Counted from the first letter of the stretch, positions 32,364 through 64,000 are shown. The stretch is DNA of 64,000 nt from Candidatus Rokuibacteriota bacterium (GCA_003220225.1 QHRU01000049.1:21430-85429); one strand, 5' to 3'. Program-made: numbers and translations. Notes: generated by a model not told the origin, from the letters alone.

Positions 32364-32374
32364 GGGCTGCTCCT

Positions 32375-44207: not shown

Positions 44208-44218
44208 CCGCGCGAACA

Positions 44219-44581: not shown

Positions 44582-44596
44582 GAGCCCCCCAATCTT

Positions 44597-45876: not shown

Positions 45877-45892
45877 GCGGGATCCTCCTGGT

Positions 45893-46312
45893 TCAGCGGG
45901 TCGGGGTGGCGCCCGGCGCGGGTGGGCTGGGCACGAGGGAAAAGTGCGTGTGCGTGGCGAGCCAGCGGCCGCCGCGGCGCTCGAAGGCGAGGGTGCACCG
46001 CCCGGGGCGCGGGAACGTGCCGCCGTCGGCGAGGGTGCCGCGCGAGTCCCAGGTGGCGGCGATCCAGCCGCGATCGCCCGCGATCGCGCCGCGCGCGTTG
46101 TCGACGTCGATCGTGAAGTCGCGGATGACCGGCCACACGCGGTGCCACTGCTCCTTCTCGATCACGTCGAGGCCCTGGACGAAGGGCACGACGGTGCCGA
46201 AGGCGACGATGTCTGGCGCGCACAGCCGGCGTCCGGCTGCGAAATCGACGGCGCGCACGCAGGTCTGCCAGGCGCGCAGCCAGTCGCGGAGGGGCGCGAG
46301 GTCGTCGGCCAT
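45893..46312 (-). CDS. SnoaL-like / NTF2-like domain protein
   Basis: 139 aa with NTF2-like cone fold signature. Confidence 0.55.
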   Translation of the reverse strand: MADDLAPLRDWLRAWQTCVRAVDFAAGRRLCAPDIVAFGTVVPFVQGLDVIEKEQWHRVWPVIRDFTIDVDNARGAIAGDRGWIAATWDSRGTLADGGTFPRPGRCTLAFERRGGRWLATHTHFSLVPSPPAPGATPTR

Positions 46313-47250: not shown

Positions 47251-48092
47251 GCGGCGAGCTCGGTCCACGCCACCATGCCCGTGCCCGAGCGCCAGGCGAC
47301 GGCCGGCATGTAAGCGAGCACGTCGGCGGGACCGCGCGTGAACGCGAGCGCCACGATCCAGGCGAGCAGCTCCGCGGTGCCGCCGGATCCGGCGGCCTCC
47401 AGCCGCTCGAGCGTGCACTCGCGCAGCAGCCGCTCGTGGTCACCGAGCTTGAGGAGATCGAGGAACCAGCGGTCGAAGTCCTCGTCCACCCAGAAATAGC
47501 GCGGCCCGCCGGGCTCGTGCGAGAGCCCGCCGGTGGCCACCACGGCCACGCGCAGCGGAGCCGGATAGGCGCGGATGACCTCGCGCAGCACGATGCCGAC
47601 CCAGTAGGCGCGCTCGGGGCGCGGGATCGGCGGCACCGTGCAGTTCATGGTGACGGGCACCAGACGGAAGCGCGCGTCGGGGTTCAGGTAGTGCGTCGGC
47701 ACCGAGATGCCGTCGTCGAACTGCATCTCGCCGCCCAGGTGGGCGAGCGCCAGCCCGCGCCGCGCGCCCTCGTTGACGAGGAAGCGCGCGAGCCCCGGCT
47801 CGCCGGGCACGCGGTACTTCTCCATCCCGAGCCACTCGTCGAACCAGTCGGCGGGCCCCACGTGCGCCTCGGCGATGCCGACCGTGTACTCGGGCGTGTT
47901 GTTCATCGGCCAGTTGAGCAGGTGGTCGTTGCTGAACATCACGAGCACGTCGGGTCGCGCAGCCTCGAGTCGGCGCCGCATCTCCGCGGTGGCGCCCAGC
48001 GCGAGCTGCTGGTACTCCTCCGACGCGCGGTCGAACCAGCCGGTGAGGCCGGGCGAGTGCGTCATGGCCATGGCGGCGACGATCTGGGCCAC
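47247..48092 (-). CDS. class III extradiol ring-cleavage dioxygenase, LigB-type catalytic subunit
   Basis: GTG start at VAQIVAAMAMTHSPG (LigB N-terminal His). Stop overlaps the formamidase start. Confidence 0.75.
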   Translation of the reverse strand: MAQIVAAMAMTHSPGLTGWFDRASEEYQQLALGATAEMRRRLEAARPDVLVMFSNDHLLNWPMNNTPEYTVGIAEAHVGPADWFDEWLGMEKYRVPGEPGLARFLVNEGARRGLALAHLGGEMQFDDGISVPTHYLNPDARFRLVPVTMNCTVPPIPRPERAYWVGIVLREVIRAYPAPLRVAVVATGGLSHEPGGPRYFWVDEDFDRWFLDLLKLGDHERLLRECTLERLEAAGSGGTAELLAWIVALAFTRGPADVLAYMPAVAWRSGTGMVAWTELAA

Positions 48093-48094
48093 CG

Positions 48095-48463
48095 TCAGCT
48101 CCGCTCGCGCCGTGCCGGGGAGACCGTCGTCTCGAGCCGCGCTTGCAGCGCCAGCGCCTTCGCCGTCTCTTCGGGGAAGGCGCGCGTGTAGCACTCGAGG
48201 GCGGCGCTGGCGTTGCTGTTCTGCGCCGCGCCGAAGAAGAGGCGCAGGATCTGCGGCACGTAGTACTGGTGGACGCCGAGGTCCATCAGGCGCCTGGGGT
48301 CCTTCGCCTGCACCGCGTCGATCTCCGCGCGGCTCAGCCCGAACTCGCCCGCGAGGGCCTCGAAATCGGTCAGCCAGCGCTCGCGCAGCCGCGCGTCGCG
48401 GCGCACGTGGAACATCATCTGGTTCAGCGGCAGCGTCTTGTCGCAGCGCTCGACGTTACCCAT
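48095..48463 (-). CDS. protocatechuate 4,5-dioxygenase alpha-subunit-like (LigA family)
   Basis: About 120 aa with LigA-like HQYYVPQILRLFFG motif. Sits immediately upstream of LigB. Confidence 0.68.
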   Translation of the reverse strand: MGNVERCDKTLPLNQMMFHVRRDARLRERWLTDFEALAGEFGLSRAEIDAVQAKDPRRLMDLGVHQYYVPQILRLFFGAAQNSNASAALECYTRAFPEETAKALALQARLETTVSPARRERS

Positions 48464-48874
48464 TTATCGTGCGAGGGGGGCTACGCCCCCCTCGGACTCC
48501 CCCGGGCTGGCCTTCAGCACCTTCGGGTTCACCTTGAGGAACATGATCACGCAGCGCTCGGCGCCGAGGTTGCGCACGTCGTGCGGCACGTTCTTCGGGA
48601 ACTTCACGATCGCGCCCGCCGGCACCACGACCTCGCGGCCGTCGATGGACATGTTCGCCGCGCCCTGCAGCACGAAGATCGCCTCCTCTTCCTTCGGATG
48701 GCTGTGCATCACGGTGGACTGACCGGGCTCGTAGCAGGCGATCTCCGACCAGAGCTGATCGGTCTTGAAGAGCATCTTCCGCACGCGCTTGTCGGGAGCG
48801 AACGCTTTCAGCGTGTGCAGGTCGAACACCTGCGCGACGCCCGTGGTGGCGGCGACGGCGACTTGCTCGTCCAT
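48464..48874 (-). CDS. cupin domain protein
   Basis: Single cupin with His ligands HSHPKEEE...H. Confidence 0.62.
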   Translation of the reverse strand: MDEQVAVAATTGVAQVFDLHTLKAFAPDKRVRKMLFKTDQLWSEIACYEPGQSTVMHSHPKEEEAIFVLQGAANMSIDGREVVVPAGAIVKFPKNVPHDVRNLGAERCVIMFLKVNPKVLKASPGESEGGVAPLAR

Positions 48875-48961
48875 GGGGCCTCCTGCGGCTGCCTAGTGTA
48901 CCGCGGGCCGTCGAATCCAAGAGCCGCGGCGCGGCATCTCTACGGATGGGAGGCGAAGACC

Positions 48962-50431: not shown

Positions 50432-50636
50432 GGCCTGGTCCTCCTGTTGGCGTTGCACTGCGAGCGCATCCGGGGGGAGCCGGGCCAGTGCAACGCGCGA
50501 GCCAAGGGCGGAAGTCCGCAAGTTTGGACCGCGCGGTGTCGCGCGCGTGGCGGCGGCATGACACTCGCGTCAGAGCGGTGACGGAGATGACACGGCCGCG
50601 TGGGAAGAACTTTTCCGTGGGCGCACCGGTCGGGCG

Positions 50637-50927
50637 CTAAAGGCAGACGCCGATCTCGCGTCCGGGCTCGGCCGCGCGGTAGGTGTCTTCCTCGACGCGG
50701 TGCCAGCGGCCCTGGGTGTCGCGCACCCACCAGTCGTGCACGAGGCGGTCACGGCGCACCTGGCCGACGCGGCCGAGCTCGTCGGTGCGCACGCCCCGAA
50801 ACTCGCTGTCGAGCCGCGTGCGTTCCTCGCGCCGGTCGGCCACGACGGTGGCCGGACGGCATGCGAGGGATGCGCAGCCCGCGAGCAGCGCGACGAGAGG
50901 CGGCAGCAGGAGGGCACGGCGGCGCAC
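50637..50927 (-). CDS. hypothetical lipoprotein
   Basis: GTG start. Lipobox LLAGC. Confidence 0.42.
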   Translation of the reverse strand: MRRRALLLPPLVALLAGCASLACRPATVVADRREERTRLDSEFRGVRTDELGRVGQVRRDRLVHDWWVRDTQGRWHRVEEDTYRAAEPGREIGVCL

Positions 50928-50992
50928 GGGCGATTGTCCCACGCGCCCGCCCTTGACATCGGGCCGCTTTGATCGGACAGTGACGCGCACCG

Positions 50993-51709
50993 ATGTTCGG
51001 AGCGGTTCGGGCGCCCCGCGTATACGAGCACATCGTCGCGCAGATCGAGCGCGCGATTTACGAGGGACGGTTCGCGCACGGCGACAAGCTCCCGCCCGAG
51101 CGTCAGCTCGTGCGCGAGTTCGGCGCCAGCCGCGTGGCCGTGCGGGAGGCGCTGCGCGCGCTCGAGCACCGCGGCCTCGTCGAGGTGCGGCAGGGGTCCG
51201 CCGGCGGCTATTTCATCCGCGAGCTGGACGCCATGCCCGTCGTGCGCGACCTGTCGACGCTCTTCCGCCTCGGCCGCGTGTCGCTGCCGCAGCTCGCGGA
51301 GGCGCGGGCCCTGCTCGAGCCGGAATCGGCGCGGCTGGCCGCCTCGCGCGTCACCGACCACGAGCTCAAGATGCTCGGCGAGTGCCTGGAGACGCGCACC
51401 GAGCCCGGGATCACCTCGCGCCGGCGCCGGGCGCTGGACGCGGAGTTCCACCGTCAGGTGGCCGCCGCCGCCCGCAATCCCGTCCACGCCGCGGTGACCC
51501 ACGCGCTCACCGCGCTGGAGATCAAGGTGGTCGCCCAGCGCGCCGAGCTCACGCCGGAGGACGACGCCGCCATCATTGCCGCGCATCTCGCGATTCACGA
51601 CGCGATCGCTCGCCGCGACGGCGACACCGCGCGCACGGCCATGTACGCGCACATCCTGGACGTCGAGCGCCGGCTCGCCCGTGGCGTCGTCACGCGCGCG
51701 GCGTCCTGA
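50993..51709 (+). CDS. GntR family transcriptional regulator (FadR/FCD subfamily)
   Basis: N-terminal wHTH (ERQLVREFGASRVAVREAL) and C-terminal FCD domain. Confidence 0.85.
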   Translation: MFGAVRAPRVYEHIVAQIERAIYEGRFAHGDKLPPERQLVREFGASRVAVREALRALEHRGLVEVRQGSAGGYFIRELDAMPVVRDLSTLFRLGRVSLPQLAEARALLEPESARLAASRVTDHELKMLGECLETRTEPGITSRRRRALDAEFHRQVAAAARNPVHAAVTHALTALEIKVVAQRAELTPEDDAAIIAAHLAIHDAIARRDGDTARTAMYAHILDVERRLARGVVTRAAS

Positions 51710-51725
51710 CCCTCGGGAGGCTCCC

Positions 51726-52937
51726 GTGAGCGCACGCCGTGCCGTGGCCACCCTCGCCGCTGCCGTCACGCTCGTCGCCGCCGCGCCCTGCGCCGCGCAG
51801 GCGCCGATCCGGATCGGCGAGATCAACTCGTTCAGCGGCATCGGCGCGCCGTTCACCGGCCCCTATCGCCAGGCCATCGAGATGGCGGTGGAGGAGGTCA
51901 ACGCCCGCGGCGGCGTGCTCGGCCGAAAGGTCGAGGTGCTCTTCCGCGACGACAAGGGGCAGCCGGCGGAGGCGGTCAAGCACGCCCAGGAGCTGGTGGC
52001 GAGCGAGAAAGTCAGTCTGATCTCCGGCACCTTCCTGTCGAACGTCGGCCTCGCCGTGTCCGACTGGGCGAAGCAGAACCGGACGCTGTTCGTCGCCGCC
52101 GAGCCGCTCACCGAGGCCATCACGTGGGCCAAGGGCCACGACCACGTCTTCCGCGTGCGACCGAACACCTACGAGCAGGGGCGCATGCTCGCCGAGAAGG
52201 CCGGCAAGCTGAAGTACGTGAAGTGGGCGACCATCGGCCCCAACTACGAGTACGGCAAGCGCGCGTGGGAAACGTTCCGCGATCGCCTCAAGGAGCTGAA
52301 GCCGGACGTGCAGGTCGTCGGCGAGCACTGGCCGACGCTGGGGAAGCTCGAGGCGGGGCCGTTCGTCACCGCCATCCTCAACCAGAACCCCGACGCGCTC
52401 TACGTGTCGCTCTTCGGCAGCGATTGGATCGCGTTCGTGCGCGAGGCCAAGAAGCGCGGGCTCTTCGACAAGACGTTCGTGGTCGGCATCCTGCTCGGCG
52501 AGCCGGAGTACATCGACCCGCTCGGCCTCGAAGCCCCCGAGGGCATGCTCGTCACCGGGTATCCCTGGTACGACATCGGCGCGCCGCCGCACAAGGACTT
52601 CGTCGCGCGCTTCACGAAGAAGTACGACAAGAACCCGGTGCTCGGCTCGCTCGTCGGCTACGTCACCTATCTCTCCATCTTCGAGGCGATCCGCAAGGCG
52701 GGCTCCACCGACACCGACAAGCTCGTGGCCGCCTTCCGCGGCCTGCGCGTGGAGACGCCGATCGGACCGATCAGCTATCGCGCGTCCGACGGGCAGTCCA
52801 CGATGGGCGCGTGGGTCGGCACCACCAAGCTCGACGCCAGGCGCGGCGTCGGGATCATGGTGAACCACGAGTACGTGCCGGGTGAAAAAGTGCTGCCGTC
52901 CGACGACGACGTGAAGAAGCTCCGAAGCGGCAACTGA
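51726..52937 (+). CDS. ABC transporter substrate-binding protein (branched-chain amino acid / amide type, Peripla_BP_6)
   Basis: GTG start with GGGAGG RBS. Signal peptide. LivJ/K-like fold. Confidence 0.8.
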   Translation: MSARRAVATLAAAVTLVAAAPCAAQAPIRIGEINSFSGIGAPFTGPYRQAIEMAVEEVNARGGVLGRKVEVLFRDDKGQPAEAVKHAQELVASEKVSLISGTFLSNVGLAVSDWAKQNRTLFVAAEPLTEAITWAKGHDHVFRVRPNTYEQGRMLAEKAGKLKYVKWATIGPNYEYGKRAWETFRDRLKELKPDVQVVGEHWPTLGKLEAGPFVTAILNQNPDALYVSLFGSDWIAFVREAKKRGLFDKTFVVGILLGEPEYIDPLGLEAPEGMLVTGYPWYDIGAPPHKDFVARFTKKYDKNPVLGSLVGYVTYLSIFEAIRKAGSTDTDKLVAAFRGLRVETPIGPISYRASDGQSTMGAWVGTTKLDARRGVGIMVNHEYVPGEKVLPSDDDVKKLRSGN

Positions 52938-52984
52938 GCCCGTCGCTCTTCCTCGTCCAGCTCCTCGCGGGGCTCGCGCACGCG

Positions 52985-54766
52985 ATGGTCCTCTTCTTCA
53001 TCGCGTCCGGGCTCTCGCTCATCTTCGGCGTGACCCGCGTCGTCAACTTCGCGCACGGGTCCTTCTACATGCTCGCCGCCTACCTCGCCTACACGCTGGC
53101 GGCGGCGCTGCCGCTGGGCGGCGCGTCCTTCTACGTGGCGGTGGCCCTCGCCGCGCTCGCCGTGGGCGCGCTCGGGACGGTGGTGGAGGTGGGCCTCCTG
53201 CGCCGCGTGTATCGTGCGCCCGAGCTCTACCAGCTGCTGCTGACCTTCGCGCTCGTGCTCGTCGTCTCCGACGTCGTCAAGCTGGTCTGGGGCAGCGAGA
53301 ACAAGACAGGGCCGAGCGCGCCCGGGCTCGGCGGCGCCGTCCGCATCGCGGGCCAGCTGGTGCCGACGTACGACCTCGCGCTCATCGCGCTCGGGCCCTG
53401 CGTGGCCGCGGCCCTCTGGTGGCTGCTCTATCGCACCCGTTGGGGCGTGCTCATCCGCGCGGCCACTCTGGACCGCGAGATGGTGGCGCTGCTGGGCGTC
53501 GACCAGGCGCGGCTGTTCACCGGTGTGTTCGCGCTCGGCTCGCTGCTCGCAGGGCTGGCGGGAGCCCTTCAAGTGCCGCGGCAGGCGCTCACCACCGTGA
53601 TGGACGCGGCGATCATCACCGAGGCCTTCGTGGTCGTCGTCGTGGGCGGCATGGGCTCGGTGCCCGGCGCGCTCCTGGCGGCCGTCGTCATCGGCGTCAT
53701 CGACGCTTTCGGCGTGCTCGTGCTCCCGCGCGCGTCGCTCGTGCTGACGTTCGTGGTGATGGCCGTCGTGCTCGTCGTGCGTCCGTGGGGTCTGCTGGGG
53801 CGGCCCGAGGCCCAGGCGCGGTCGGCGGGCGGCGCGATCACCGCCGGCCGCGGCGTCGGCGTCCCCCGCTGGCTGATCGCCGTCCTCGTCGCGGTCCTGC
53901 TCGTCGTGCCGCCGCTGCTGCCCACGTTCTACGTCTGGGTGCTCGTCGAGATCCTCGCGTTCGCGCTCTTCGCGGCGAGCCTCCACCTCCTGATGGGGAC
54001 GGGCGGCATGGTCTCGTTCGGCCACGCGGCGGCCTTCGGCCTGGGCGCGTACGGCGCGGCGCTGCTCGTGCGGTGGGCGAAGGCGCCGATGCTCGTCGCG
54101 CTCGCGGCCGCGCCGGTGACGGCCGCGCTGGCCGCCGTGGTCATCGGCTTCTTCTGCGTGCGGCTGTCGTCGATCTACTTCGCGATGCTCACGCTCGCCT
54201 TCGCCCAGATCGCCTACGCGATCGTGCACCAGTGGTACGACGTGACGGGCGGTGACAACGGCCTCCTCGGCATCTGGCCCGCGCCCTGGCTCGCGTCGCC
54301 GGTCCGCTACTACTACCTCGCCCTCGCCGCGTGCGGCGCCGGTCTCGCCGCGCTGGCTGCGATCGGCCGCGCGCCGTTCGGGCTCACGCTGCGCGCCGCG
54401 CGCGACCACGCGCGCCGCGCGGAGGCGGTCGGGATCGACGTGCACGCGCACCAGTGGCGGGCCTTCGTCGTCGCCGGCTTCTTCGGCGGGCTCGCGGGCG
54501 GCACCTTCGTGTTCCTCAAGGGCAGCGTGTTCCCCGAGTCGCTGGCGGTGCCGGTCTCGGTGGAGCCGCTCGTGATGGTGCTGCTGGGGGGCGTGCACTC
54601 GCTGGCGGGCGCGCCGCTCGGCGCCGCGCTCTACAAGCTGCTCGACACCGTGGTGACGCGTTACACGGAATACTGGCAGCTCGTGCTCGGCGTCATCCTC
54701 GTGGCCCTGGTGCTTGTGTTTCCGCGCGGGATCCTCGGCGTGCTGGGGGCGCGCGAGCGTGGCTGA
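52985..54766 (+). CDS. fused branched-chain amino acid ABC transporter permease (LivH-LivM fusion)
   Basis: 593 aa with two permease modules. The true start likely lies about 15 codons upstream at a non-ATG codon. Confidence 0.8.
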   Translation: MVLFFIASGLSLIFGVTRVVNFAHGSFYMLAAYLAYTLAAALPLGGASFYVAVALAALAVGALGTVVEVGLLRRVYRAPELYQLLLTFALVLVVSDVVKLVWGSENKTGPSAPGLGGAVRIAGQLVPTYDLALIALGPCVAAALWWLLYRTRWGVLIRAATLDREMVALLGVDQARLFTGVFALGSLLAGLAGALQVPRQALTTVMDAAIITEAFVVVVVGGMGSVPGALLAAVVIGVIDAFGVLVLPRASLVLTFVVMAVVLVVRPWGLLGRPEAQARSAGGAITAGRGVGVPRWLIAVLVAVLLVVPPLLPTFYVWVLVEILAFALFAASLHLLMGTGGMVSFGHAAAFGLGAYGAALLVRWAKAPMLVALAAAPVTAALAAVVIGFFCVRLSSIYFAMLTLAFAQIAYAIVHQWYDVTGGDNGLLGIWPAPWLASPVRYYYLALAACGAGLAALAAIGRAPFGLTLRAARDHARRAEAVGIDVHAHQWRAFVVAGFFGGLAGGTFVFLKGSVFPESLAVPVSVEPLVMVLLGGVHSLAGAPLGAALYKLLDTVVTRYTEYWQLVLGVILVALVLVFPRGILGVLGARERG

Positions 54767-55514
54767 GCGCGCCCCCGTCCTGGAGGTCGAGAACGTCCGG
54801 CGCGCGTTCGGCGGGGTGCGCGCGGTCGACGGCGTGTCGTTCGCCCTCGAGCGCGGCGAGATCCGCGCCCTCATCGGCCCCAACGGCGCCGGCAAGTCAA
54901 CCTTCTTCGACATCCTCACGGGTCAGCTCCGCGCCGACGCGGGCGAGGTGCGCTGGCGCGGTCGTCCCATCGGCGGGCTGCCGCCGCACGCGATCTGGCG
55001 CCTGGGCATCAGCCGCACCTTCCAGATCACGGCCACGTTCGCGACGCTCACCGTCCTCGAGAACGTGCAGGTCGCGCGGCTGTCGCACGCGGGTCGGAGC
55101 CGCGTGCTGCTGATTCCCGCCGCGCGGCTGGAGATCGCGCCGTCGCGCGCGCTGCTGGAGCAGGTGGGGCTCGCCGAGCAGGCCACGCGGGCGGCCGGGG
55201 TGCTCGCCTACGGCGATCTCAAGAAGCTGGAGCTCGCGATCGCGCTCGCCAACGATCCCGCGCTGCTGCTGCTCGACGAGCCCACGGCGGGGATGGCGCC
55301 CGGCGAGCGCGGCGCGCTGATGGCGCTGACGGCGCGGATCGCGCGTGAGCGCGGGCTCACCGTGCTCTTCACCGAGCACGACATGGACGTCGTCTTCGCG
55401 GTCGCCGAGCGGATCATGGTGCTGCACCAGGGCCGCGTGATCGCCGACGGTCCGCCGGCCGCCGTGCGGGCCGACCGCGAGGTGCAGGCCGTGTACCTCG
55501 GCGAGGATCCGTGA
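54759..55514 (+). CDS. ABC transporter ATP-binding protein (LivG-like)
   Basis: Walker A GPNGAGKST. ABC signature. GTG start overlapping the permease stop. Confidence 0.85.
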   Translation: MAERAPVLEVENVRRAFGGVRAVDGVSFALERGEIRALIGPNGAGKSTFFDILTGQLRADAGEVRWRGRPIGGLPPHAIWRLGISRTFQITATFATLTVLENVQVARLSHAGRSRVLLIPAARLEIAPSRALLEQVGLAEQATRAAGVLAYGDLKKLELAIALANDPALLLLDEPTAGMAPGERGALMALTARIARERGLTVLFTEHDMDVVFAVAERIMVLHQGRVIADGPPAAVRADREVQAVYLGEDP

Positions 55515-56203
55515 TGTTCGAGCTGGCGGACGTCCACGCGGTCTACGGCCGCAGCCGCGTGCTGCACGGCGTGAGCCTGCGCGCCGGCGAGGGCGAAGTG
55601 GTCGCGCTGCTCGGACGCAACGGCGCCGGGAAGTCCACCACGCTCAAGGCGATCGTGGGCGTCGTCGAGGTGACGGCGGGCGACATCCGCTTCGAGGGGC
55701 GCTCGCTGCGCGGCGTGCCGACGCATCGCGTGGCCCGGCTCGGGATCGGGCTCGTGCCGGAAGACCGGCGGATCTTCGCCGATCTCACGGTGGCGGAAAA
55801 TCTCTTGGTAGGTGCGCGGCCGGACAGCGGCTGGACGGTCGATCGCGTCTTCGGCCTCTTCCCCAAGCTCGCCGAGCTCGCGCGCCAGCGCGGCGGCAGC
55901 CTCTCGGGCGGCGAGCAGCAGATGCTGACGATCGCACGCACGCTGATGACGGGCCCGCGCCTGCTGCTCCTCGATGAGCCCTCGGAGGGGCTGGCGCCGG
56001 TCGTCGTCGCCGCGCTCGCCGAGAACGTGGCCGCTCTGAAGCGCCAGGGGCTGACCATTCTCATGGCCGAGCAGAACGTGAAGTTCGCCCGCCGGCTGAC
56101 CGACCGCGCCTACATCATCGAGAAGGGCCAGATCCGCTTCGAGGGGACGATGGCCACCCTCGACGCCGACGAGTCGCTGCGCCGCGCGTACCTGTCTGTT
56201 TGA
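55511..56203 (+). CDS. ABC transporter ATP-binding protein (LivF-like)
   Basis: Walker A GRNGAGKST. Signature LSGGEQQ. Confidence 0.85.
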   Translation: MMFELADVHAVYGRSRVLHGVSLRAGEGEVVALLGRNGAGKSTTLKAIVGVVEVTAGDIRFEGRSLRGVPTHRVARLGIGLVPEDRRIFADLTVAENLLVGARPDSGWTVDRVFGLFPKLAELARQRGGSLSGGEQQMLTIARTLMTGPRLLLLDEPSEGLAPVVVAALAENVAALKRQGLTILMAEQNVKFARRLTDRAYIIEKGQIRFEGTMATLDADESLRRAYLSV

Positions 56204-56412
56204 ATGGGGGGCCCCGAAATGGCCCCCCATACCCCCCAACGCTCGTCGCGCCCCGGCGCAGCCGTGGCGCGCCTCGACCCCCAACGCTCGTCGCGCCCCG
56301 GCGTAGCCGTGGCGCGCCTCGACCCCCAACGCTCGTCGCGCCCCGGCGCAGCCGTGGCGCGCCTCGCCCCCCAACGCTCGTCGCGCCCCGGCGCAGCCGT
56401 GGCGCGCCTCGG
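56204..56412. repeat. GC-rich REP/MITE-like repeat, copy C (reverse orientation): hairpin 56206-56228, followed by 4 tandem copies of a 45-bp unit (56233-56412)
   Basis: The hairpin is the reverse complement of the copy A/B hairpin. Unit is cccccaacgctcgtcgcgccccggcgcagccgtggcgcgcctcga, repeated 4 times with 1-2 mismatches. Confidence 0.85.
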
Positions 56413-56459
56413 TCGCGGGTATGATTTTTGCGGTCTGTTCCGGTCGATGGCGGGCGGAG

Positions 56460-56736
56460 GACCAACTGCCTGTTCGTCGAGGCCGCGCTCGTCGCCAACG
56501 CCGTCGTCGACATCACCGCGGTGGCCGAGCGCAAGCGCCTGGCCATGCAGGCATTCCCGAGCCAGCAGACGGAGTTCGACTATCCGCGGGCGATGGACGG
56601 CCTCAACACCTACCGCTCGCTGCACCGCGGGCGCGCCCGCGGTCTCGCCGAGGCGTTCCACGTCGCCGAGCTCGACGTGTACCGCCGGCTGTTCGACCTG
56701 ATCGCGATCGGCCGGCGCCGCGCCGCGACGGCGTAG
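56460..56736 (+). pseudogene. C-terminal remnant of a PIG-L/LmbE family deacetylase
   Basis: ...CLFVEAALVANAVVDITAVAERKRLAMQAFPSQQ... matches the C-terminal 'kk.a.l..h.sQ' region of LmbE-like proteins. No N-terminal catalytic half. Abuts the tandem repeat. Confidence 0.35.
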
Positions 56737-56807
56737 CGCGCGCTCGCGCGCGAGGGTTGCGTCCTTCCGCCCGATTTGACACACTCGCGCGACGGAGGCC
56801 CCGCGCG

Positions 56808-57983
56808 ATGAAGACGCTCGTCCGCAACATCGGCACGCTCGTCAGCGGCGACATCGGCCGGCCGCTGCTCGACGCCGACGCACTCGTCATCCGCGACGGG
56901 CAGATCGCCGCCGTGGGCCGCGGGCTCGACGAGGACGCCGACACGGTGATCGACGCGCGCGGCACCACGGTGCTGCCGGGGCTGATCGACTCGCACGTCC
57001 ATCCGGTCTTCGGCGACTTCACCCCACGCCAGCGCACCATGGACTTCATCGACTCCGGCATGAACGGCGGCGTGACCACAGCGATCTCGGCGGGCGAAGT
57101 CCACCTGCCGGGCCGGCCCAAGGACATCGTCGGCCTCAAGGCGCTCGCGATCGTCGCCGCGAAGTCCTACGCGAACTTCCGGCCCGGCGGCGTGAAGGTC
57201 CACGCGGGCGCGCCGATTCTGGAGCTCGGCATGACCGAGGGCGACTTCGCCGAGATGGCGGCGGCCGGCGTGCGACTCGTCGGCGAGATCGGCCTCGGCT
57301 CGGTGAAGACGGGCAAGGACGCGGCGCCCATGGTGCGCTGGGCCCGGGCGCACGGCATGACGGTGACCATCCACACGGGCGGGCCGTCCATCGCGGGCAG
57401 CAGCCCGATCAACGCGGACGTCGTGCTGGAGGCGGCGCCCGACGTCGTCGGCCACGTCAACGGCGGCACGACGTCGATGACGCCGGCCGAGATCGAGCGG
57501 CTCGTCGCGACGGACATGGCGCTCGAGATCGTGCAGTGCGGAAACATGAAGACCGCGCTCCACACGCTGCGCGTCGCGCGCGACGCGCGGGCGGCGCACC
57601 GGCTGATCATCGGCAACGACGCGCCCTCGGGAACCGGCGTGATCCCGCTCGGCGTGCTCCGCACGCTGAGCGTGCTGGCCGCGCTCGGCGGGTTGCCGCC
57701 GGCGGAGGCGATCGCGTGTGCCACCGGCAACACGGCGCGCGTGTACAAGCTCGACTGCGGCGTGATCGCCGCCGGCCGAGCCGCGGACCTCGTGATCTGC
57801 GACGCGCCGACCGGCTCGATCGCCTCCGACGCGCTCGGCGCCCTGGCCGCCGGCGACCTGCCGGGCATCTCGATGGTGCTGATCGACGGCCGCATCACGA
57901 TCGGCCGCAGCCGCAACACGCCGCCCGCCGCCCGCGCGGCCGAGGTCGTCAAGGGGCACGGGCCCGCGGGAGCCGGCCACTAG
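56808..57983 (+). CDS. amidohydrolase family protein, enamidase-like cyclic amidohydrolase
   Basis: RBS GACGGAGG. N-terminal MKTLVRNIGTLVSGDIG...VLPGLIDSHVHPVFGD metal-binding motif, typical of enamidase/imidazolonepropionase-like enzymes. Confidence 0.7.
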   Translation: MKTLVRNIGTLVSGDIGRPLLDADALVIRDGQIAAVGRGLDEDADTVIDARGTTVLPGLIDSHVHPVFGDFTPRQRTMDFIDSGMNGGVTTAISAGEVHLPGRPKDIVGLKALAIVAAKSYANFRPGGVKVHAGAPILELGMTEGDFAEMAAAGVRLVGEIGLGSVKTGKDAAPMVRWARAHGMTVTIHTGGPSIAGSSPINADVVLEAAPDVVGHVNGGTTSMTPAEIERLVATDMALEIVQCGNMKTALHTLRVARDARAAHRLIIGNDAPSGTGVIPLGVLRTLSVLAALGGLPPAEAIACATGNTARVYKLDCGVIAAGRAADLVICDAPTGSIASDALGALAAGDLPGISMVLIDGRITIGRSRNTPPAARAAEVVKGHGPAGAGH

Positions 57984-59203
57984 TGCGCGTTCGGCCGTTC
58001 CGCGGTTATCGCTACGCGATCGGCAGGGAGCGAGAGATCAGCAAGGTCGTCGCGCCGCCGTACGATCAGATCAGCGCCGAGCAGCAGGACGCGCTGTACG
58101 CGATGAGTCCCGCCAACATCGTTCGCGTCTCGTACCCCAGGGACGACGGCGACAAGTACGCGCGGGCGCGCGCCACGCTGGACGCGTGGCTGGCCGAGGG
58201 GGTGTGGGGGCAGGAGGAATCGCCCGCGATCTATCCCTACCATCAGACCTATCGTGTGGGCAGCCGGGAGGTCACGCGCGTCGGCCTCGTCGCGCTCGGA
58301 CAGGTGACCGACTACGCGGGCGGCGAGGTGCTGCCCCACGAGCGCACTCACGCGGGGCCGAAGCAGGACCGCATGCGGCTGCTCGAGGCGACGGGGGCGG
58401 ACACGGGACTGCTCTTCATGGTGGTCGCCGACGCCAGCGGCGCCCTGCTGGAGGCGTCGAGGCCCGGCGGCGAGCCCATCGCGGAGGCGCGCGACCTCAG
58501 GGGCGAGCGCCATCGCCTCTGGCGCGTGACCGACGCGGCGGCGGTCGCGCGCGTCCAGGCGGCGCTCGCCGCCGCCCGCGTGATCATCGCCGACGGCCAC
58601 CATCGCTACGAGACGGCGGTGGAGTACGCGCGCCGGCATCCCGGCGCCGACGACAAGCTGATGGCGTTCTTCAGCCTCGACGCGCCGGGGCTGACGATCT
58701 TTCCCAACCATCGGCTCGTCCACCGGGTGGACGGGTTCTCGCTCGCACGATTGAGCGCGGGCGCGCGGCGCTGGTTCGAGGTGGCGCCGCTCGCCGATCC
58801 GCTGGCGTTCCGACCGACCAACCGCGCGCTCGGCGTCGTCACCGCCGATAGCGCGGTCACCCTGACGCTCCGGCCCGACGCCTTCGACGCGCTGCCGTGG
58901 CCGGCCGGCACGTCGCGGGCGTGGCGCGAGCTGGCGGTGTCGATCCTGCACGAGGGCGTGCTGAAGCCGCTCGGCGACGTCTCCGACGAAAGGCTCGACG
59001 CCGGGACCCACGTGGAGTACACGGCGGACCAGGAGGAGGCGGTGCGCCTGGCGCGCGCCGGGCGCTATCAGGCGGCGTTCCTCATCGCCCCGACCACGCT
59101 CCCGGAGCTGCAGGCGGTCGTGCGCGGCGGCGAAGTGCTGCCGCAGAAGTCGACGCACTTCTATCCGAAGCTCCTGGACGGTCTGGTCTTTCATCGTATT
59201 TAG
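57983..59203 (+). CDS. DUF1015 family protein
   Basis: GTG start overlapping the upstream stop. DUF1015-like motifs IYPYHQ, PHERTHAGPKQDR and IADGHHRYETA. Confidence 0.62.
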   Translation: MRVRPFRGYRYAIGREREISKVVAPPYDQISAEQQDALYAMSPANIVRVSYPRDDGDKYARARATLDAWLAEGVWGQEESPAIYPYHQTYRVGSREVTRVGLVALGQVTDYAGGEVLPHERTHAGPKQDRMRLLEATGADTGLLFMVVADASGALLEASRPGGEPIAEARDLRGERHRLWRVTDAAAVARVQAALAAARVIIADGHHRYETAVEYARRHPGADDKLMAFFSLDAPGLTIFPNHRLVHRVDGFSLARLSAGARRWFEVAPLADPLAFRPTNRALGVVTADSAVTLTLRPDAFDALPWPAGTSRAWRELAVSILHEGVLKPLGDVSDERLDAGTHVEYTADQEEAVRLARAGRYQAAFLIAPTTLPELQAVVRGGEVLPQKSTHFYPKLLDGLVFHRI

Positions 59204-59272
59204 CGTCGGAGCGGCTTCGCAGGGCTCCGCCGCTCGACGTTCGGGCGACGGTGGCGCGAGGAGACTGAGAAC

Positions 59273-59845
59273 ATGGTGAAGATCCGCAAGCTGGTCACGC
59301 TGGTCGAAGAGATCCTGAGCGACGGCGGCCGGGAGGCCAAGCACCCGGTGCGCAAGGCGGCGGCGGTGGTCGTGCTCGAGAACCCGTTCGCCGGGCGCTT
59401 CGTCGACGACCTCACGCCGCTCATCGACGCGGGCGAGGAGCTGGGGGCGCTCCTGGCCAAGAAGGCGACCGAGGCCCTCGGCGCGCCCGCCGAGTCCTAT
59501 GGAAAAGCGGCGATCGTGGGCGAGCAGGGGGAGTACGAGCACGCGGCGGCGCTCCTGCATCCGAAGCTCGGCGCGCCGCTCCGCGCGGCGGTCGGCGGCG
59601 GCAAGGCCATCATCCCGTCGGCGAAGAAGCTCGGCGGACCCGGGACGGGGATCGACGTGCCGCTGCACTTCAAGGACGCCGCGTTCGTGCGCACCCACTA
59701 CGACGCCATGGAGGTCCGCATCCCCGACGCGCCGCGCGCCAACGAGATCGTGCTGGCGATCGTCGTCACCGACGGCGGCCGGCCCCACCCGCGGATCGGC
59801 GGCCTCACCAAGGACGAGGCCAGGAAAGAGGACGGCCAGCGATGA
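59273..59845 (+). CDS. amino-acid-synthesis family protein (AA_synth / DUF1185)
   Basis: 190 aa. N-terminal MVKIRKLVTLVEE...VVLENPFAGRFVDDL pattern. Confidence 0.5.
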   Translation: MVKIRKLVTLVEEILSDGGREAKHPVRKAAAVVVLENPFAGRFVDDLTPLIDAGEELGALLAKKATEALGAPAESYGKAAIVGEQGEYEHAAALLHPKLGAPLRAAVGGGKAIIPSAKKLGGPGTGIDVPLHFKDAAFVRTHYDAMEVRIPDAPRANEIVLAIVVTDGGRPHPRIGGLTKDEARKEDGQR

Positions 59846-60834
59846 GACACGGTCTGCGCATCCCGTCGTTCGCGCTCGGTCCGAAGACGGCGACGCTGGA
59901 GGAGATGGGCCGCTATCTGCGCCGCGCCGAGGATCTGAGATTCGAGGCCGCGGTGACGATCGACCACCTGCTGCTGACGCCACCGGCCTACGCGACGACC
60001 TGGCTCGAGCCGCTGTCGATGCTGTCGGCGCTGGCCGGCGTGACGCGCACGATCCGTCTCGGCACGATGGTGCTCGTCCTGCCGCTGCGCAATCCCGTCT
60101 ATTTCGCCAAAGAGTGGGCGACCCTCGATCTGCTCTCGGGCGGCCGCTCGATCCTCGGCATCGGCGTGGGCTGGCACGAGGAAGAATTCGAGCTGATGGG
60201 CGTGCCCTACAAGGAGCGTGGGCCGCGCATGAACGAGGCGATCGAGGCGGTGTGCGCGCTGTGGGCGGGCGACCACGTCACCTACATGGGCAAGTTCTAT
60301 CGCTTCGAGAACCTGACCATCGACCCCAAGCCCGCGCAGAAGCCGCACCCGCCGATCTGGATCGGCGGCGGCACGCAGCCCTCCGAGAAGGTCTACGGCC
60401 AGACGGTGCCGAACATCGATCCCGTGCTCCGGCGCATCGCGAAGTACGCCGACACCTGGGTGCCGCACTCCTCGGCGACGCCGGAGATGGTGAAGGGCGA
60501 CTGGGACAAGGTGCAGCGCTTCGCGCGCGAGGCGGGGCGCGATCCGGCGAAGATCGGCCGCGTGTACTCCAACTTCGTCTGGGTCCTCGAGAAGGGCGAG
60601 AAGCCGGAGTCGGCGATCCCGCACTTCTCCGTCTACTCCGGCATGGACCTCGACTACTGGAAGACCTATTACCTGCTCGGCACCGCCGAGGAGGTGGCCG
60701 AGCGCATCAGCGCGCGCATCGCCGCGCTGGACCACGGCGTGGACTGGATCGTGCTCAATCCACTGAACTGGGGGCTCGAGCAACTGGAGCTGATCGCGGC
60801 CGAGGTGCTGCCCCGCGTGAAGGGCGGATCCTGA
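59842..60834 (+). CDS. LLM class F420/flavin-dependent oxidoreductase
   Basis: LLM TIM-barrel motifs. ATGA overlap with the upstream gene. Confidence 0.8.
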   Translation: MRHGLRIPSFALGPKTATLEEMGRYLRRAEDLRFEAAVTIDHLLLTPPAYATTWLEPLSMLSALAGVTRTIRLGTMVLVLPLRNPVYFAKEWATLDLLSGGRSILGIGVGWHEEEFELMGVPYKERGPRMNEAIEAVCALWAGDHVTYMGKFYRFENLTIDPKPAQKPHPPIWIGGGTQPSEKVYGQTVPNIDPVLRRIAKYADTWVPHSSATPEMVKGDWDKVQRFAREAGRDPAKIGRVYSNFVWVLEKGEKPESAIPHFSVYSGMDLDYWKTYYLLGTAEEVAERISARIAALDHGVDWIVLNPLNWGLEQLELIAAEVLPRVKGGS

Positions 60835-63140
60835 TCCGTTACACCGGCGCGCGCGTCAAACGGGTCGAGGACCCGCGGCTGCTCCGCGGCCGCGGGCGCT
60901 ACGTGGACGATCTCGTGCTCCCGCGCCTGCTCCACGTGGCGTTCGTGCGCAGCCCGCATGCCCACGCCGTCGTGCGCCGCCTCGACCCGAAAGCGGCGCA
61001 GGCGGTGGACGGCGTCGTCGCCGTCGTCGGCCCCGCCGACCTCCGCGCCCAGCCGCTGGCGCCCCAGCTGGCCGGCGATGGATTCCGGCCCACCGCGTGG
61101 CCGGCGCTGGCGAGCGAGCCGCGGTTCTGCGGGGAGGCGGTGGCGGCGGTCGTGGCCGCGTCCGCCTACGCGGCGGCCGACGGCGCCGAGCGCGTCGGCG
61201 TGGCCTACGACGTGCGTCCGGCGCGGGTCAGCCTCGAGCAGGCGCTCCGTGACGACGCGGTGTTGTTCCGCCGCACCCACCGCCGCGGCGACGTCGAGGC
61301 GGCGTTCGCCAGCGCGCCCGTCGTCGTCAACGAGACCTTCAGCCACGGCCGGCTCACCGCCTCGCCGCTGGAGCCGCGCGGCATCATCGCCGACTGGGAC
61401 GGCGAGACGCTCTCCGTGTGGGCCTCGAGCCAGACGCCGCGGATCATGCGCACGGCCCTGGCGGGCGCGCTCGGTCTGGACGAGACGCGGGTCCGCGTGC
61501 AGATCCCCGACGTCGGGGGCGGCTTCGGGCCCAAGATGCACGTGTTCCCCGAGGACGTGGCGGTGGCGGCGCTCGCGATGCGTCTGGGCCGCCCCGTGAA
61601 GTGGATCGAGCCGCGCCGCGAGAACCTCGCGGCCGCCTCGCAGGCCCGCGAGCAGCGGCTGGAGGTGGAGGTCGCGGCCGACGCCGGCGGCCGCGTGCTC
61701 GCGCTCAAGGCGCGGGTCGTGTCCGACGCCGGCGCCTATCACGTCTATCCGATCACGGCGGCGCTGGAGGCGCTCGGCACCGCCAACATCCTGCCGGGGC
61801 CGTACCTCACGCCCGTCTACGCCTACGAGGCGATCGCGGTCGCGACCAACAAGCCGCCGCTCGGCGCCTACCGCGGCGTGGGCATGACGATGGGCGCATT
61901 CGTGATGGAACGCCTCCTGGACCTGATCGCGGGGCGGACGGGACTCGATCCAGCAGACATTCGGCGGCGCAACTTGATTCCGCGGGAAGCCTACCCGTTC
62001 ACGTCGGCGAGCGGACAGCGCTACGACAGCGGAGACTACCCCAAGGCGCTCGAGCAGGCGCTGGCCGCCGTCGACTACGACGGGTTCCGCCGGGTGCAGG
62101 CCGAAGGGCGCGTTCGGGGTCGGCTGCTCGGGATCGGCCTGGCCTGCTACACGGAGTACACCGGCATGGGCTCCGCGGTCTTCCGTGGACGCGGGATGCG
62201 GGAGGTGCCGGGCATCGAGGCCGCCGTCGTGCGCGTCGAGCCCGACGGCACGGTGCGCTGCGCAACCTCGTTTCCCTCGCAGGGGCAGGGGCACGCCACG
62301 ACGATCGCGCAGATCCTCGCAGACCGTCTGGGCGTTGCGCTGGAGCGCATTCGCGTGGAGCCGGCCGACACGGCCGCCGCGCCGCTCGGCAGCGGCACCT
62401 TCGGCAGCCGGGGGGCCGTGTCCATCGGGGGCACGGTCACGGCGGCCGCGGAGCGCCTGCGGCCCCGGATCGCGGCGCTCGCCGCGCACCTGCTGGAGGC
62501 GGGCGTGGCCGACGTCGTGCTCGAGGACGGCCGGGCTCACGTGCGCGGCTTCCCGGAGCGAGCGGTGACGCTGACCGAGATCGCGCGCGCCGCGTACGCG
62601 CCGCTGTTCGGCGGCCTGCCGTCCGGGCTCGAGCCCGGGCTCGAGGCGACCGTGTATTTCGATCCGCCGGGGCCGACGTTCTCGGGCGCGGTCCACGTCG
62701 CGGTGGTCGAGATCGATCCCGAGACGGGGCGCGTCAGCATCCTGCGCTACGTGCTGGTGGAGGACTGCGGGCCTGTCGTGAATCCGACGATCGTCGAGGG
62801 CCAGATCCACGGCGCGGTGGCCCAGGGGATCGGCGAGGCGCTGCTCGAGCGGATCGTGTACGACGACACGGGCCAGCTCGTGACCGGCACCCTGATGGAC
62901 TACGCGCTTCCCACGGCCGGCGACGTGCCCTCGTTCGAGATCGGTCACCTCGAGACGCCGTCGCCGACGATGCCCGGTGGGATCAAAGGCATGGGCGAGG
63001 GCGGGACCATCGGCGCGCCCGCCGCCCTCGCGAACGCCGTCGCTGATGCCGTCGCGCCGCTCGGCGTCACCATCACCGCGCTGCCGATCGCCGCCGAGCG
63101 GCTCGCGCGGTTGCCACGTCCCCCACAGAGAAAGGTCTGA
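60831..63140 (+). CDS. xanthine dehydrogenase family molybdopterin-binding large subunit (CoxL-like)
   Basis: Homologous along its whole length to the CoxL-like protein at 12450-14816 (VKRVEDPRLLRGRG, GGGFG, AYRGVG, GEGG). No in-frame ATG, GTG or TTG start sits near the homologous N-terminus. The nearest candidate is CTG/ATC at 60831-60836. Confidence 0.78.
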   Translation: MIRYTGARVKRVEDPRLLRGRGRYVDDLVLPRLLHVAFVRSPHAHAVVRRLDPKAAQAVDGVVAVVGPADLRAQPLAPQLAGDGFRPTAWPALASEPRFCGEAVAAVVAASAYAAADGAERVGVAYDVRPARVSLEQALRDDAVLFRRTHRRGDVEAAFASAPVVVNETFSHGRLTASPLEPRGIIADWDGETLSVWASSQTPRIMRTALAGALGLDETRVRVQIPDVGGGFGPKMHVFPEDVAVAALAMRLGRPVKWIEPRRENLAAASQAREQRLEVEVAADAGGRVLALKARVVSDAGAYHVYPITAALEALGTANILPGPYLTPVYAYEAIAVATNKPPLGAYRGVGMTMGAFVMERLLDLIAGRTGLDPADIRRRNLIPREAYPFTSASGQRYDSGDYPKALEQALAAVDYDGFRRVQAEGRVRGRLLGIGLACYTEYTGMGSAVFRGRGMREVPGIEAAVVRVEPDGTVRCATSFPSQGQGHATTIAQILADRLGVALERIRVEPADTAAAPLGSGTFGSRGAVSIGGTVTAAAERLRPRIAALAAHLLEAGVADVVLEDGRAHVRGFPERAVTLTEIARAAYAPLFGGLPSGLEPGLEATVYFDPPGPTFSGAVHVAVVEIDPETGRVSILRYVLVEDCGPVVNPTIVEGQIHGAVAQGIGEALLERIVYDDTGQLVTGTLMDYALPTAGDVPSFEIGHLETPSPTMPGGIKGMGEGGTIGAPAALANAVADAVAPLGVTITALPIAAERLARLPRPPQRKV

Positions 63141-63146
63141 TCGCTC

Positions 63147-64000
63147 ATGGGCAAGCAGGATCTCGAGATCGCGCGCACGGTCACCCTCAAGCCGATCCAG
63201 GAGATCGGCGCCGCCGTCGGGCTGGCGCCGGGTGACCTGGAGCCCTACGGCCACTACAAGGCGAAGGTCGGCTGGGACGCCATCGCGCGCCGCCGCGACC
63301 ATCCCGACGGCGCGCTCGTGCTGGTGACCGCGATGACGCCGACGCCCGCGGGCGAGGGAAAGTCCACGACCACCGTGGGCCTCGCCGACGGCCTCCGGCG
63401 CCTGGGCAAGCGCGCGGTGGTCGCGCTGCGCGAGCCCTCGCTGGGCCCGGTGTTCGGCATGAAGGGCGGCGCGACGGGCGGCGGCCGCGCGCAGCTGGCG
63501 CCGATGGAGGACATCAACCTCCACTTCACGGGGGACATGCACGCGATCGGCGCCGCGCACAACCTCCTGGCCGCGATGCTCGACAACCATCTCACGCAGG
63601 GCAACGCCCTCGGGATCGACACGCGCCGCGTGCTGTTCAAGCGCGTCGTGGACATGAACGACCGCGCGCTGCGCAACATCGTGCTCGGCCTCGGCGGGCC
63701 GGCCCACGGCGTGCCGCGTGAGGGCGGCTTCGAGATCACCGTGGCCTCCGAGGTCATGGCCATTCTCTGTCTGTCCGCCGACCTCGTGGACTTCAAGGCG
63801 CGCGCCGGGCGCGTGGTCGTGGCCGAGACGGCCGACGGCGCTCCGGTCACCGCGGCCGATCTGCGGGCGGCGGGCGCCATGGCCGTGCTGATGAAGGACG
63901 CGATCAAGCCGAACCTCGTGCAGACGCTCGAGGGCACGCCGGCGCTGGTGCACGGCGGCCCCTTCGGCAACATCGCCCACGGCTGCAACTCGGTCATCGC
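63147..64000 (+). CDS. fhs: formate--tetrahydrofolate ligase, 3'-truncated by window edge
   Basis: Hand-translated: [12 protein letters not shown]...[15 protein letters not shown]...[13 protein letters not shown] (FTHFS signatures). Not in the ORF track because no stop codon falls inside the window. Confidence 0.88.

Follow-up and report, generated by a model that had tools for sequence, protein, structure and literature searches.

What does the gene cluster at the 3' end of a Rokubacterial DNA stretch break down, and with which enzymes? The stretch analysed here, called the window, is 64,000 nucleotides of a Candidatus Rokuibacteriota bacterium (GCA_003220225.1 QHRU01000049.1:21430-85429). 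From position 50993 to its end at 64000 it carries a single plus-strand run of genes for a GntR-type regulator, a Liv-type ABC importer, an enamidase-like amidohydrolase, two proteins with domains of unknown function (DUF1015 and DUF1185), an LLM oxidoreductase, a molybdenum hydroxylase large subunit and a formate-tetrahydrofolate ligase. The initial annotation read this run as a candidate undescribed pathway for an N-heterocycle or a lactam. Sequence comparison points instead to nicotinate. The cluster probably serves the uptake and catabolism of nicotinate, and of nicotinamide by way of a nicotinamidase found in sister genomes, by the known route through 1,4,5,6-tetrahydro-6-oxonicotinate (THON), with a variant enzyme set. 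The THON route and the naming of the enamidase are already known. What is new is the LLM protein in place of the 6-hydroxynicotinate reductase Hnr, and a lone QorL-like molybdenum subunit in place of the Ndh-type hydroxylase. No description of the LLM variant, or of its pairing with a lone QorL-like subunit, was found in the literature searched.

The known route is preferred to an undescribed one because the importer, the enamidase and DUF1185 have orthologues in the Proteobacterial nic cluster, and because a nicotinamidase gene lies in 11 sister operons. The replacement pattern comes from a survey of one genome per species, which gave 80 loci. Locus contents were scored by tblastn with window proteins and reference proteins, and counts were taken from the 38 loci in which the enamidase gene (ena) is flanked by at least 6 kb on each side. 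LLM is found without Hnr in 30 of the 38 and Hnr without LLM in three; no locus has both. The QorL-like subunit is found without an Ndh-type enzyme in 26 loci, an Ndh-type fused FeS/Mo subunit without the QorL-like one in five, and the two together in none.

The gene list and order given by the initial annotation were recovered in full with Pfam and NCBIfam, all on the plus strand. The base composition of the window is about 72% G+C, and third-position GC was used to sort true genes from spurious open reading frames (ORFs); it is at least 0.9 for all listed cluster genes, consistent with coding. The features are as follows.

50993-51709, plus: GntR and FCD domain regulator (Pfam GntR 4.7e-20, FCD 9.6e-20)
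51726-52937, plus: Peripla_BP_6 binding protein, 403 aa, with signal peptide (Pfam 1.6e-74)
52985-54766, plus: fused LivH/LivM-type permease, 593 aa, two BPD_transp_2 domains (Pfam 4.6e-66, two stretches)
54759-55514, plus: LivG-like ABC ATPase, 251 aa (Pfam ABC_tran, BCA_ABC_TP_C)
55514-56203, plus: LivF-like ABC ATPase, 229 aa (Pfam ABC_tran 3.4e-32)
56204-56418, no strand: spacer with a hairpin and a tandem array (tandem repeat finder, hairpin listing)
56428-56736, plus: 3' remnant of a PIG-L/LmbE-type deacetylase gene, 102 aa (alignment to the full-length gene of locus L011)
56808-57983, plus: enamidase, 391 aa (PDB 2VUN, E 9.1e-137)
57983-59203, plus: DUF1015 (PF06245) protein, 406 aa (Pfam 1.2e-70)
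59273-59845, plus: AA_synth/DUF1185 (PF06684) protein, 190 aa (Pfam 2.3e-74)
59842-60834, plus: LLM oxidoreductase, 330 aa (TIGR03619, 210.2 bits against a cut-off of 166.9)
60831-63140 (called 60915-63140), plus: xanthine dehydrogenase family molybdenum large subunit (Ald_Xan_dh_C, MoCoBD_1, MoCoBD_2)
63147-64000, plus: 5' part of fhs, formate-tetrahydrofolate ligase (NF010030, 489 bits)

Start and stop codons overlap between the two ATPase genes (TGATG), ena and the DUF1015 gene (TAGTG), the AA_synth and LLM genes (ATGA), and the LLM and molybdenum subunit genes (CTGA). An exact-match look-up finds the identical locus on many soil-metagenome contigs and in the metagenome-assembled genome (MAG) GCA_009771575.1; close relatives carry the labels Rokubacteria or Methylomirabilota. 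Only unrelated genes come after fhs in the matching loci (a TPR protein gene, then opposite-strand genes), so the cluster ends there. More than 50 species-level genomes share the core of enamidase, AA_synth, LLM and molybdenum subunit, in most cases together with the ABC importer. The arrangement is therefore non-random, and the genes do co-occur outside this genome.

In the proposed scheme the GntR/FCD regulator would control the operon and the Liv-type ABC system would import nicotinate. The QorL-like subunit would hydroxylate nicotinate at C6 with oxygen from water, its Fe-S and FAD partners being encoded elsewhere or not yet identified. The LLM protein, probably with hydride from F420H2, would reduce the C4=C5 bond of 6-hydroxynicotinate to give THON, replacing Hnr and its ApbE-like partner. 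The enamidase would open the lactam to ammonia and 2-formylglutarate, and DUF1185 would act at this step or immediately after it. This keeps the succession of molybdenum-dependent hydroxylation, ring reduction and enamidase opening on which the initial annotation had based its own proposal.

Enamidase, DUF1185 and the importer

Searched against all PDB sequences, the amidohydrolase matches 2VUN, the enamidase of Eubacterium barkeri, with an E value of 9.1e-137 over residues 2-380 at 57% identity. The next matches (isoaspartyl dipeptidase, dihydroorotase and hydantoinase) stand at 1e-8 or worse. H63, H65, H189, H216 and D271 are invariant among the window protein, 2VUN and two relatives; by analogy with the amidohydrolase superfamily at large, these are the putative binuclear metal-binding positions (HxH and later His/Asp). 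A neighbour-joining tree places the window protein together with 2VUN and the Hnr-adjacent proteobacterial enamidases. The outgroup is formed by homologues from Thermomicrobium, Rhodococcus, Agrobacterium vitis and Mesorhizobium, which have other neighbours and are 43-44% identical to 2VUN. The enamidase type assigned initially is thus upheld both by the PDB search and by phylogeny, and the JGI and NCBI pipelines already label close relatives 'enamidase'. By homology the protein is a true enamidase (EC 3.5.2.18), predicted to convert THON to 2-formylglutarate and NH3.

The DUF1185 protein matches the AA_synth profile over positions 1-175 of 175, and has PDB matches to 2QTP (SPO0826; 1.1e-72) and 3BYQ (9e-40). 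It accompanies ena in 34 of the 38 well-covered loci. The pair also occurs, with otherwise different neighbours, in Firmicutes, Alpha- and Betaproteobacteria, Thermomicrobium, Chloroflexota and Dormibacterota, and it is present in the E. barkeri-type, Acetobacterium, Comamonadaceae and Sulfitobacter clusters. Even in Thermomicrobium, A. vitis and Mesorhizobium, where the enamidase homologue is divergent, it has an adjoining AA_synth gene. This neighbourhood links DUF1185 to the very step catalysed by the enamidase. The leading guess, which is speculation, is that it handles the enamine or imine, or the labile aldehyde 2-formylglutarate, coming from the enamidase. A role as the 2-formylglutarate decarboxylase of the aerobic Azorhizobium pathway was considered and dropped: the fermentative route of E. 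barkeri retains all six carbons, and the AA_synth protein adjoining ena in the E. barkeri-type cluster is 61% identical to that of the window.

The initial annotation saw in the locus a chance to assign functions to both domains of unknown function, and expected DUF1015, DUF1185 and enamidase-like genes to stay together across genomes. For DUF1185 the expected co-occurrence with enamidase was borne out. For DUF1015 it was not: it is found in 13 of the 38 loci, all in one enamidase sub-clade, and counts as an accessory.

Reference clusters were found by tblastn with the enamidase against annotated plasmids. The Comamonadaceae cluster (CP099606) encodes two ATPases, a fused permease, a binding protein, two AA_synth proteins, UPF0280 and a '6-hydroxynicotinate reductase', with a ferredoxin-NADP reductase, a TetR regulator and the enamidase encoded divergently. 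Its proteins are close to their window counterparts: binding protein 51% identical, permease 55%, LivG-like ATPase 57%, AA_synth 62% and enamidase 58%. Sulfitobacter plasmid pSpoCB-1 carries two AA_synth genes, UPF0280, Hnr, a fused FeS/Mo subunit, an FAD subunit and ferredoxin-NADP reductase, adjoining the enamidase and acyl-CoA genes. The E. barkeri-type locus (L105) has an enamidase 97% identical to 2VUN. It shares with Acetobacterium bakii the order Hnr, ApbE-like, Hgd, NdhF, NdhS, NdhL, NdhM, ena, AA_synth, Mgm, Mii, MutL, Dml, Hmd, DmdAB; each of the two loci has one extra gene missing from the other, and only L105 has an upstream LysR regulator.

The nicotinate fermentation cluster of E. 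barkeri, reportedly described by Alhapel and colleagues in 2006, resembles the window in molybdenum-dependent 6-hydroxylation, reduction to THON and opening by an enamidase. The window enamidase and AA_synth are 57% and 61% identical to those of this cluster type. Hnr with the ApbE-like protein, the four-subunit NdhFSLM, Hgd and the B12-dependent branch (Mgm, Mii, Hmd, DmdAB, Dml) belong to the E. barkeri type only; the LLM protein, the lone QorL-like subunit, the ABC importer, DUF1015 and Fhs belong to the window only. With the aerobic cluster of the Azorhizobium/Bradyrhizobium type (PMC3511419, Fig. 4) the window has in common a Liv-type importer with fused permease, the enamidase and AA_synth. 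The Proteobacterial type differs in having Hnr, UPF0280/ApbE-like proteins, ferredoxin-NADP reductase and two AA_synth paralogues, and the Sulfitobacter example also in its fused FeS/Mo hydroxylase with FAD subunit and its glutarate-CoA genes. Pseudomonas putida KT2440, whose nic cluster is cited in PMC9304392, uses another, aerobic route, with 6-hydroxylation, oxidative decarboxylation to 2,5-dihydroxypyridine and dioxygenase cleavage, and with neither ring reduction nor an enamidase. The window shares with that cluster the substrate and the first, molybdenum-dependent step; its later enzymes are not in the window cluster.

The importer is orthologous to the transporter of the Azorhizobium-type cluster, which has been named a putative nicotinate ABC transporter (PMC3511419). 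Nicotinate is the candidate ligand of the window binding protein. A second, likewise indirect link to nicotinate is the nicotinamidase gene, which lies between the AA_synth and LLM genes in 11 related loci (8 of the 38 well-covered ones); the protein scores 175.6 bits with NF008623 against a cut-off of 174 and has a Tat signal. The GntR/FCD protein, of the FadR subfamily, is likely a repressor or sensor of the cluster, and a homologue lies directly 5' of the importer or ena in about 24 related loci. A sigma-70 promoter scan of 50500-57000 found none. In one strain that is otherwise 99-100% identical (L010), the regulator and binding protein are only 84% identical, and the sequence is identical from the permease onward, which suggests a recombination boundary within the cluster.

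The LLM oxidoreductase and the lone molybdenum subunit

The LLM protein exceeds the cut-off of TIGR03619, and its next two best NCBIfam families are also F420 LLM families. NCBI gives the TIGR03619 F420-dependent LLM name to the Chloroflexota homologues, and the PDB matches include Fgd and hydroxymycolic acid dehydrogenase. The enzyme is thus predicted to be F420-dependent. A tblastn of the LLM protein against plasmids gave no match at 1e-40, hence no example from a cultured host was found, and of the best 120 relatives of a Chloroflexota homologue all those with a source name are MAGs. Rokubacteria and Chloroflexi are reported to possess F420 biosynthesis genes, and enones and enoates are among the compounds reduced by F420H2 enzymes (PMC8498797). 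The F420H2 ene-reductases and LLM hydride transferases of Actinobacteria have in common with the proposed step the family TIGR03619 and hydride addition to an activated C=C bond; outside Actinobacteria, no bacterial role of F420 has been studied experimentally (PMC8498797).

Two Hnr queries and one UPF0280 query, run by tblastn, had no match in the window, nor did they in any locus from Rokubacteria or Chloroflexota. Hnr itself draws on reduced ferredoxin, which makes a low-potential hydride donor a reasonable choice chemically. To our knowledge no F420H2 ene-reductase or LLM member reduces 6-hydroxynicotinate. Three Chloroflexota/Dormibacterota contexts, reached with a Chloroflexota LLM query, are informative here. 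They contain AA_synth, ena, LLM, an FAD subunit, a fused FeS/Mo subunit 52-53% identical to that of Sulfitobacter, and a nucleoside hydrolase, and they have no Hnr; LLM lies between ena and a complete Ndh-type hydroxylase. Ring reduction is assigned to the LLM protein because it is the sole oxidoreductase left in this five-gene module and because it never occurs with Hnr. It is thus a candidate 6-hydroxynicotinate reductase and a non-orthologous substitute for Hnr, by an inference that fills a gap in the route.

The molybdenum subunit was initially called CoxL-like, a label that proved misleading. Its nearest solved relative is QorL, the large subunit of quinoline 2-oxidoreductase (PDB 1T3Q_B, 3.6e-176). 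The protein read from 60834 has GGGFG at residue 228 and GMGEGG, with the catalytic Glu, at 719. Its active-site loop is AYRGVGM; the CO dehydrogenase loop AYxCSFR, with the Cu-binding Cys, is not present. TIGR02416 (CoxL) gives it 582 bits against a cut-off of 991, and it lies below all CO dehydrogenase cut-offs, so identity as CO dehydrogenase was rejected. Nor is it orthologous to the Ndh type, with which it has about 30% identity. Since the QorL-like subunit and the Ndh-type enzyme are mutually exclusive, the former is a candidate nicotinate 6-hydroxylase. QorMSL of Pseudomonas putida 86 (1T3Q) has the closest large subunit, and both enzymes would hydroxylate the carbon beside the ring nitrogen. 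They differ in that Qor is an (LMS)2 enzyme, whereas the window type has no S or M gene within 10 kb in 26 genomes.

The start of this gene needs correction. A conserved N-terminus, IRYTGARVKRVEDPRLL, is encoded upstream of the called GTG start at 60915, and the LLM stop codon is embedded in GTGA or CTGA across most loci. On account of both features the start is taken to be GTG or, here, the non-canonical CTG at 60831. The start of the gene callers, which would drop 28 conserved residues, was replaced accordingly.

Several points weigh against these assignments. The functions of the variant are deduced from comparative genomics. The 80 loci are mostly from one phylum, Rokubacteria, with a few from Chloroflexota, Binatia, Acidoferrum, Deferrimicrobiaceae and Verrucomicrobiia MAGs, so that the counts do not reflect independent events; the same associations do recur in other phyla and in other gene orders, with AA_synth, ena and LLM reordered in Chloroflexota. 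The LLM family also includes monooxygenases and alcohol or aldehyde dehydrogenases, and F420 was chosen over FMN from family scores alone. Hnr or coxS/coxM-type genes could sit elsewhere in the genomes, about 20 kb having been inspected per locus besides the 64-kb window. All 26 loci with the QorL-like subunit are devoid of an Fe-S or FAD partner gene within 10 kb, so that the hydroxylase would need an unexplained electron outlet; the sole 2Fe-2S subunit gene of this family in the window is IorA-like and about 29 kb from the molybdenum subunit gene. The best NCBIfam matches of that subunit are aldehyde and CO dehydrogenase-type models, all below cut-off, and it may have an aldehyde-oxidising role. 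Finally, no gene of the cluster accounts for the disposal of 2-formylglutarate.

A rival reading keeps the substrate and route but exchanges the roles. The LLM protein would then reduce or oxidise the aldehyde 2-formylglutarate in the manner of Hgd, the molybdenum subunit would be an aldehyde oxidoreductase for 2-formylglutarate or glutarate semialdehyde, and hydroxylation and ring reduction would be encoded elsewhere. F420-dependent LLM proteins do include alcohol and aldehyde-type dehydrogenases, as the PDB matches illustrate; NCBIfam ranks glyceraldehyde dehydrogenase alpha first for the molybdenum subunit, though at 627 bits this falls short of the cut-off of 790; and the downstream steps, otherwise missing from the cluster, would be supplied. 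However, the distribution of the QorL-like and Ndh-type enzymes (26 against 5, never both) indicates equivalence and not an extra step, the five-gene Chloroflexota module would be left with a gap between hydroxylase and enamidase, and LLM and Hnr never occur together. We consider such an exchange of roles unlikely.

The nicotinate hydroxylase and reductase assignments can also be taken one step further. The genes for the LLM protein and the molybdenum subunit are translationally coupled, and the two products might form one complex in which electrons from the molybdenum centre pass straight to reduction of the product. Nicotinate and water would give THON in a redox-neutral reaction, with no Fe-S centre, FAD or external carrier. 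This is a long shot. If true, the complex would be a new molybdenum hydroxylase architecture, and would provide the first defined physiological role of such an LLM protein outside Actinobacteria.

Orphan molybdenum large subunits seem common in this genome. A second lone CoxL-type subunit (12450-14816, minus strand, 788 aa, loop PYRGAGR) has no Fe-S or FAD genes nearby; the adjoining gene, at 14993-15460 on the minus strand, is of the YjgF/RidA family. The IorA/IorB-like pair, at about 29750-32400 on the minus strand, encodes a 156-aa 2Fe-2S protein and a 715-aa molybdenum subunit, downstream of genes for a CoA-transferase, Amidohydro_2, an AMP-binding ligase, NMO, LLM and ADH.

Accessory genes, the spacer and the surrounding loci

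The fhs gene starts 6 nt past the molybdenum subunit gene and is probably co-transcribed with it here. The part within the window, about 284-286 of 558 residues, scores 489 bits with NF010030 against a cut-off of 652. Full fhs genes are present in L001-L010, and the L001 copy (558 aa) carries PF01268. Besides the window, only the close relatives L011, L012 and L024 have fhs beside the cluster, and two of these three are among the 38 well-covered loci; Fhs as a conserved member of the pathway was rejected on this ground.

DUF1015 retains the family motifs PPYD, HE.T, DR, IADGHHR and P.K.T.F. Its 13 loci are confined to an enamidase sub-clade at 80% identity or more; in the sister sub-clade without it, AA_synth directly follows ena. 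The family (PF06245) has been proposed to comprise SerBK serine kinases (bioRxiv 10.1101/2024.10.14.618325). The window protein is only 23-32% identical to members from Bacteroides, Monoglobus and Thiodictyon, which lie beside serC/serA, hom/thrB or cobD, and its own neighbours are ena and AA_synth, not serA/serC; it was therefore not placed in the SerBK subfamily (CDIF630erm_01132/BT1151-like). The DUF1015 family has a kinase-like ParB/Srx-type fold, and its member here is an accessory. Both DUF1015 and Fhs joined the cluster late and only in particular lineages. As to the family at large, of the DUF1015 genes in L101 (Thiodictyon pTs485) and L100 (Monoglobus), one lies within about 3 kb of cobD (threonine-phosphate decarboxylase) and the other beside hom/thrB. 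The family may thus include threonine or homoserine kinases besides the proposed serine kinases.

These two genes were central to the pathway first suggested for the run, in which another N-heterocycle or lactam would be opened with release of its formyl group, Fhs would capture the formate, and DUF1015 and DUF1185 would be core catalysts. The position of fhs just after the molybdenum subunit gene fits this, deformylation of 2-formylglutarate is possible in principle, and the distant enamidase homologues at 43-44% identity to 2VUN, which sit with other enzymes, probably have other substrates. Yet Fhs and DUF1015 come and go while the remaining cluster is conserved. The window enamidase falls inside the nicotinate clade, apart from the divergent homologues; orthologues of the importer and of DUF1185 occur in nicotinate clusters, and the sister operons have a nicotinamidase embedded in them. 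The link from formyl group to formate through Fhs is weakly supported, and we regard an undescribed pathway as quite improbable. It is hardly credible that only the importer and enamidase are functional and that the downstream genes are a chance run kept by synteny in a single phylum: shared ancestry within Rokubacteria does inflate co-occurrence, but the AA_synth-ena pair spans the phyla listed above with different neighbours, the Chloroflexota have AA_synth, ena and LLM in a different order, and overlapping start and stop codons join the genes.

Between importer and ena lies a spacer that varies among strains. A perfect 10-bp hairpin (56204-56230) comes right after the importer genes, followed at 56233-56411 by a tandem array with a period of 45 bp, 4.0 copies and 97% matches. 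The 45-bp unit is itself a palindromic hairpin, CGCGCCCCGGC-GCA-GCCGTGGCGCG, and the array ends with a terminator-like hairpin and a T-run. In near-identical strains (L001 and others) the spacer is 135 bp shorter, that is, by three units; the array looks like a variable REP-like element. In this strain the hairpin, repeats and terminator-like site split the importer from the catabolic genes, whereas the importer genes run directly into ena in the sister sub-clade. The 102-aa ORF that follows has high third-position GC, has no Pfam hit and is restricted to the closest relatives. It aligns, with an internal deletion, to the C-terminus of the full-length L011 deacetylase; being what is left of a PIG-L deacetylase gene, it was rejected as a member of the pathway. 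L011, L013 and L036 have the full PIG-L/LmbE gene and a GT2 glycosyltransferase gene between importer and ena, and therefore an insertion took place that was later partly deleted in this strain.

Other genes recur near clusters of this kind. The Chloroflexota/Dormibacterota contexts have an inosine-uridine-type nucleoside hydrolase gene downstream of the hydroxylase on the same strand (L102:13571-14524, L103:13691-14638, L104:16387-17379). It directly follows the hydroxylase gene in L102 and L103, and lies about 2.6 kb on, past two genes, in L104; the enzyme may release nicotinate or nicotinamide from ribosides. Six Rokubacteria loci (L073:9097-9909 and five others), with a different upstream ABC transporter, have a DUF169 gene just 5' of ena. 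Upstream in the window, an opposite-strand operon (about 44200-48900, minus) encodes a cupin, LigA, LigB (extradiol dioxygenase), an FmdA/AmdA-type amidase, a SnoaL-like protein, a second LLM protein and a PNPOx-like protein. In 6-15 related loci the cupin, LigB and amidase genes are again found upstream of the nic-type cluster, and the operon may be another ring-cleavage pathway.

Meaning of the variant cluster

In the clusters examined, whether Firmicute, Proteobacterial or LLM-type, DUF1185, a family with two crystal structures, is the enamidase's constant companion. If the nicotinate assignment is true, this would narrow its function to ring opening, and the reductive nicotinate pathway would have a third set of enzymes, widespread in abundant uncultured soil phyla (Rokubacteria, Chloroflexota, Dormibacterota, Binatia). 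The LLM protein would be a non-orthologous replacement of the oxygen-sensitive Fe-S 6-hydroxynicotinate reductase, with a possible use in biocatalysis. It would also give a concrete substrate to an F420-type LLM enzyme in bacteria without a known F420 function.

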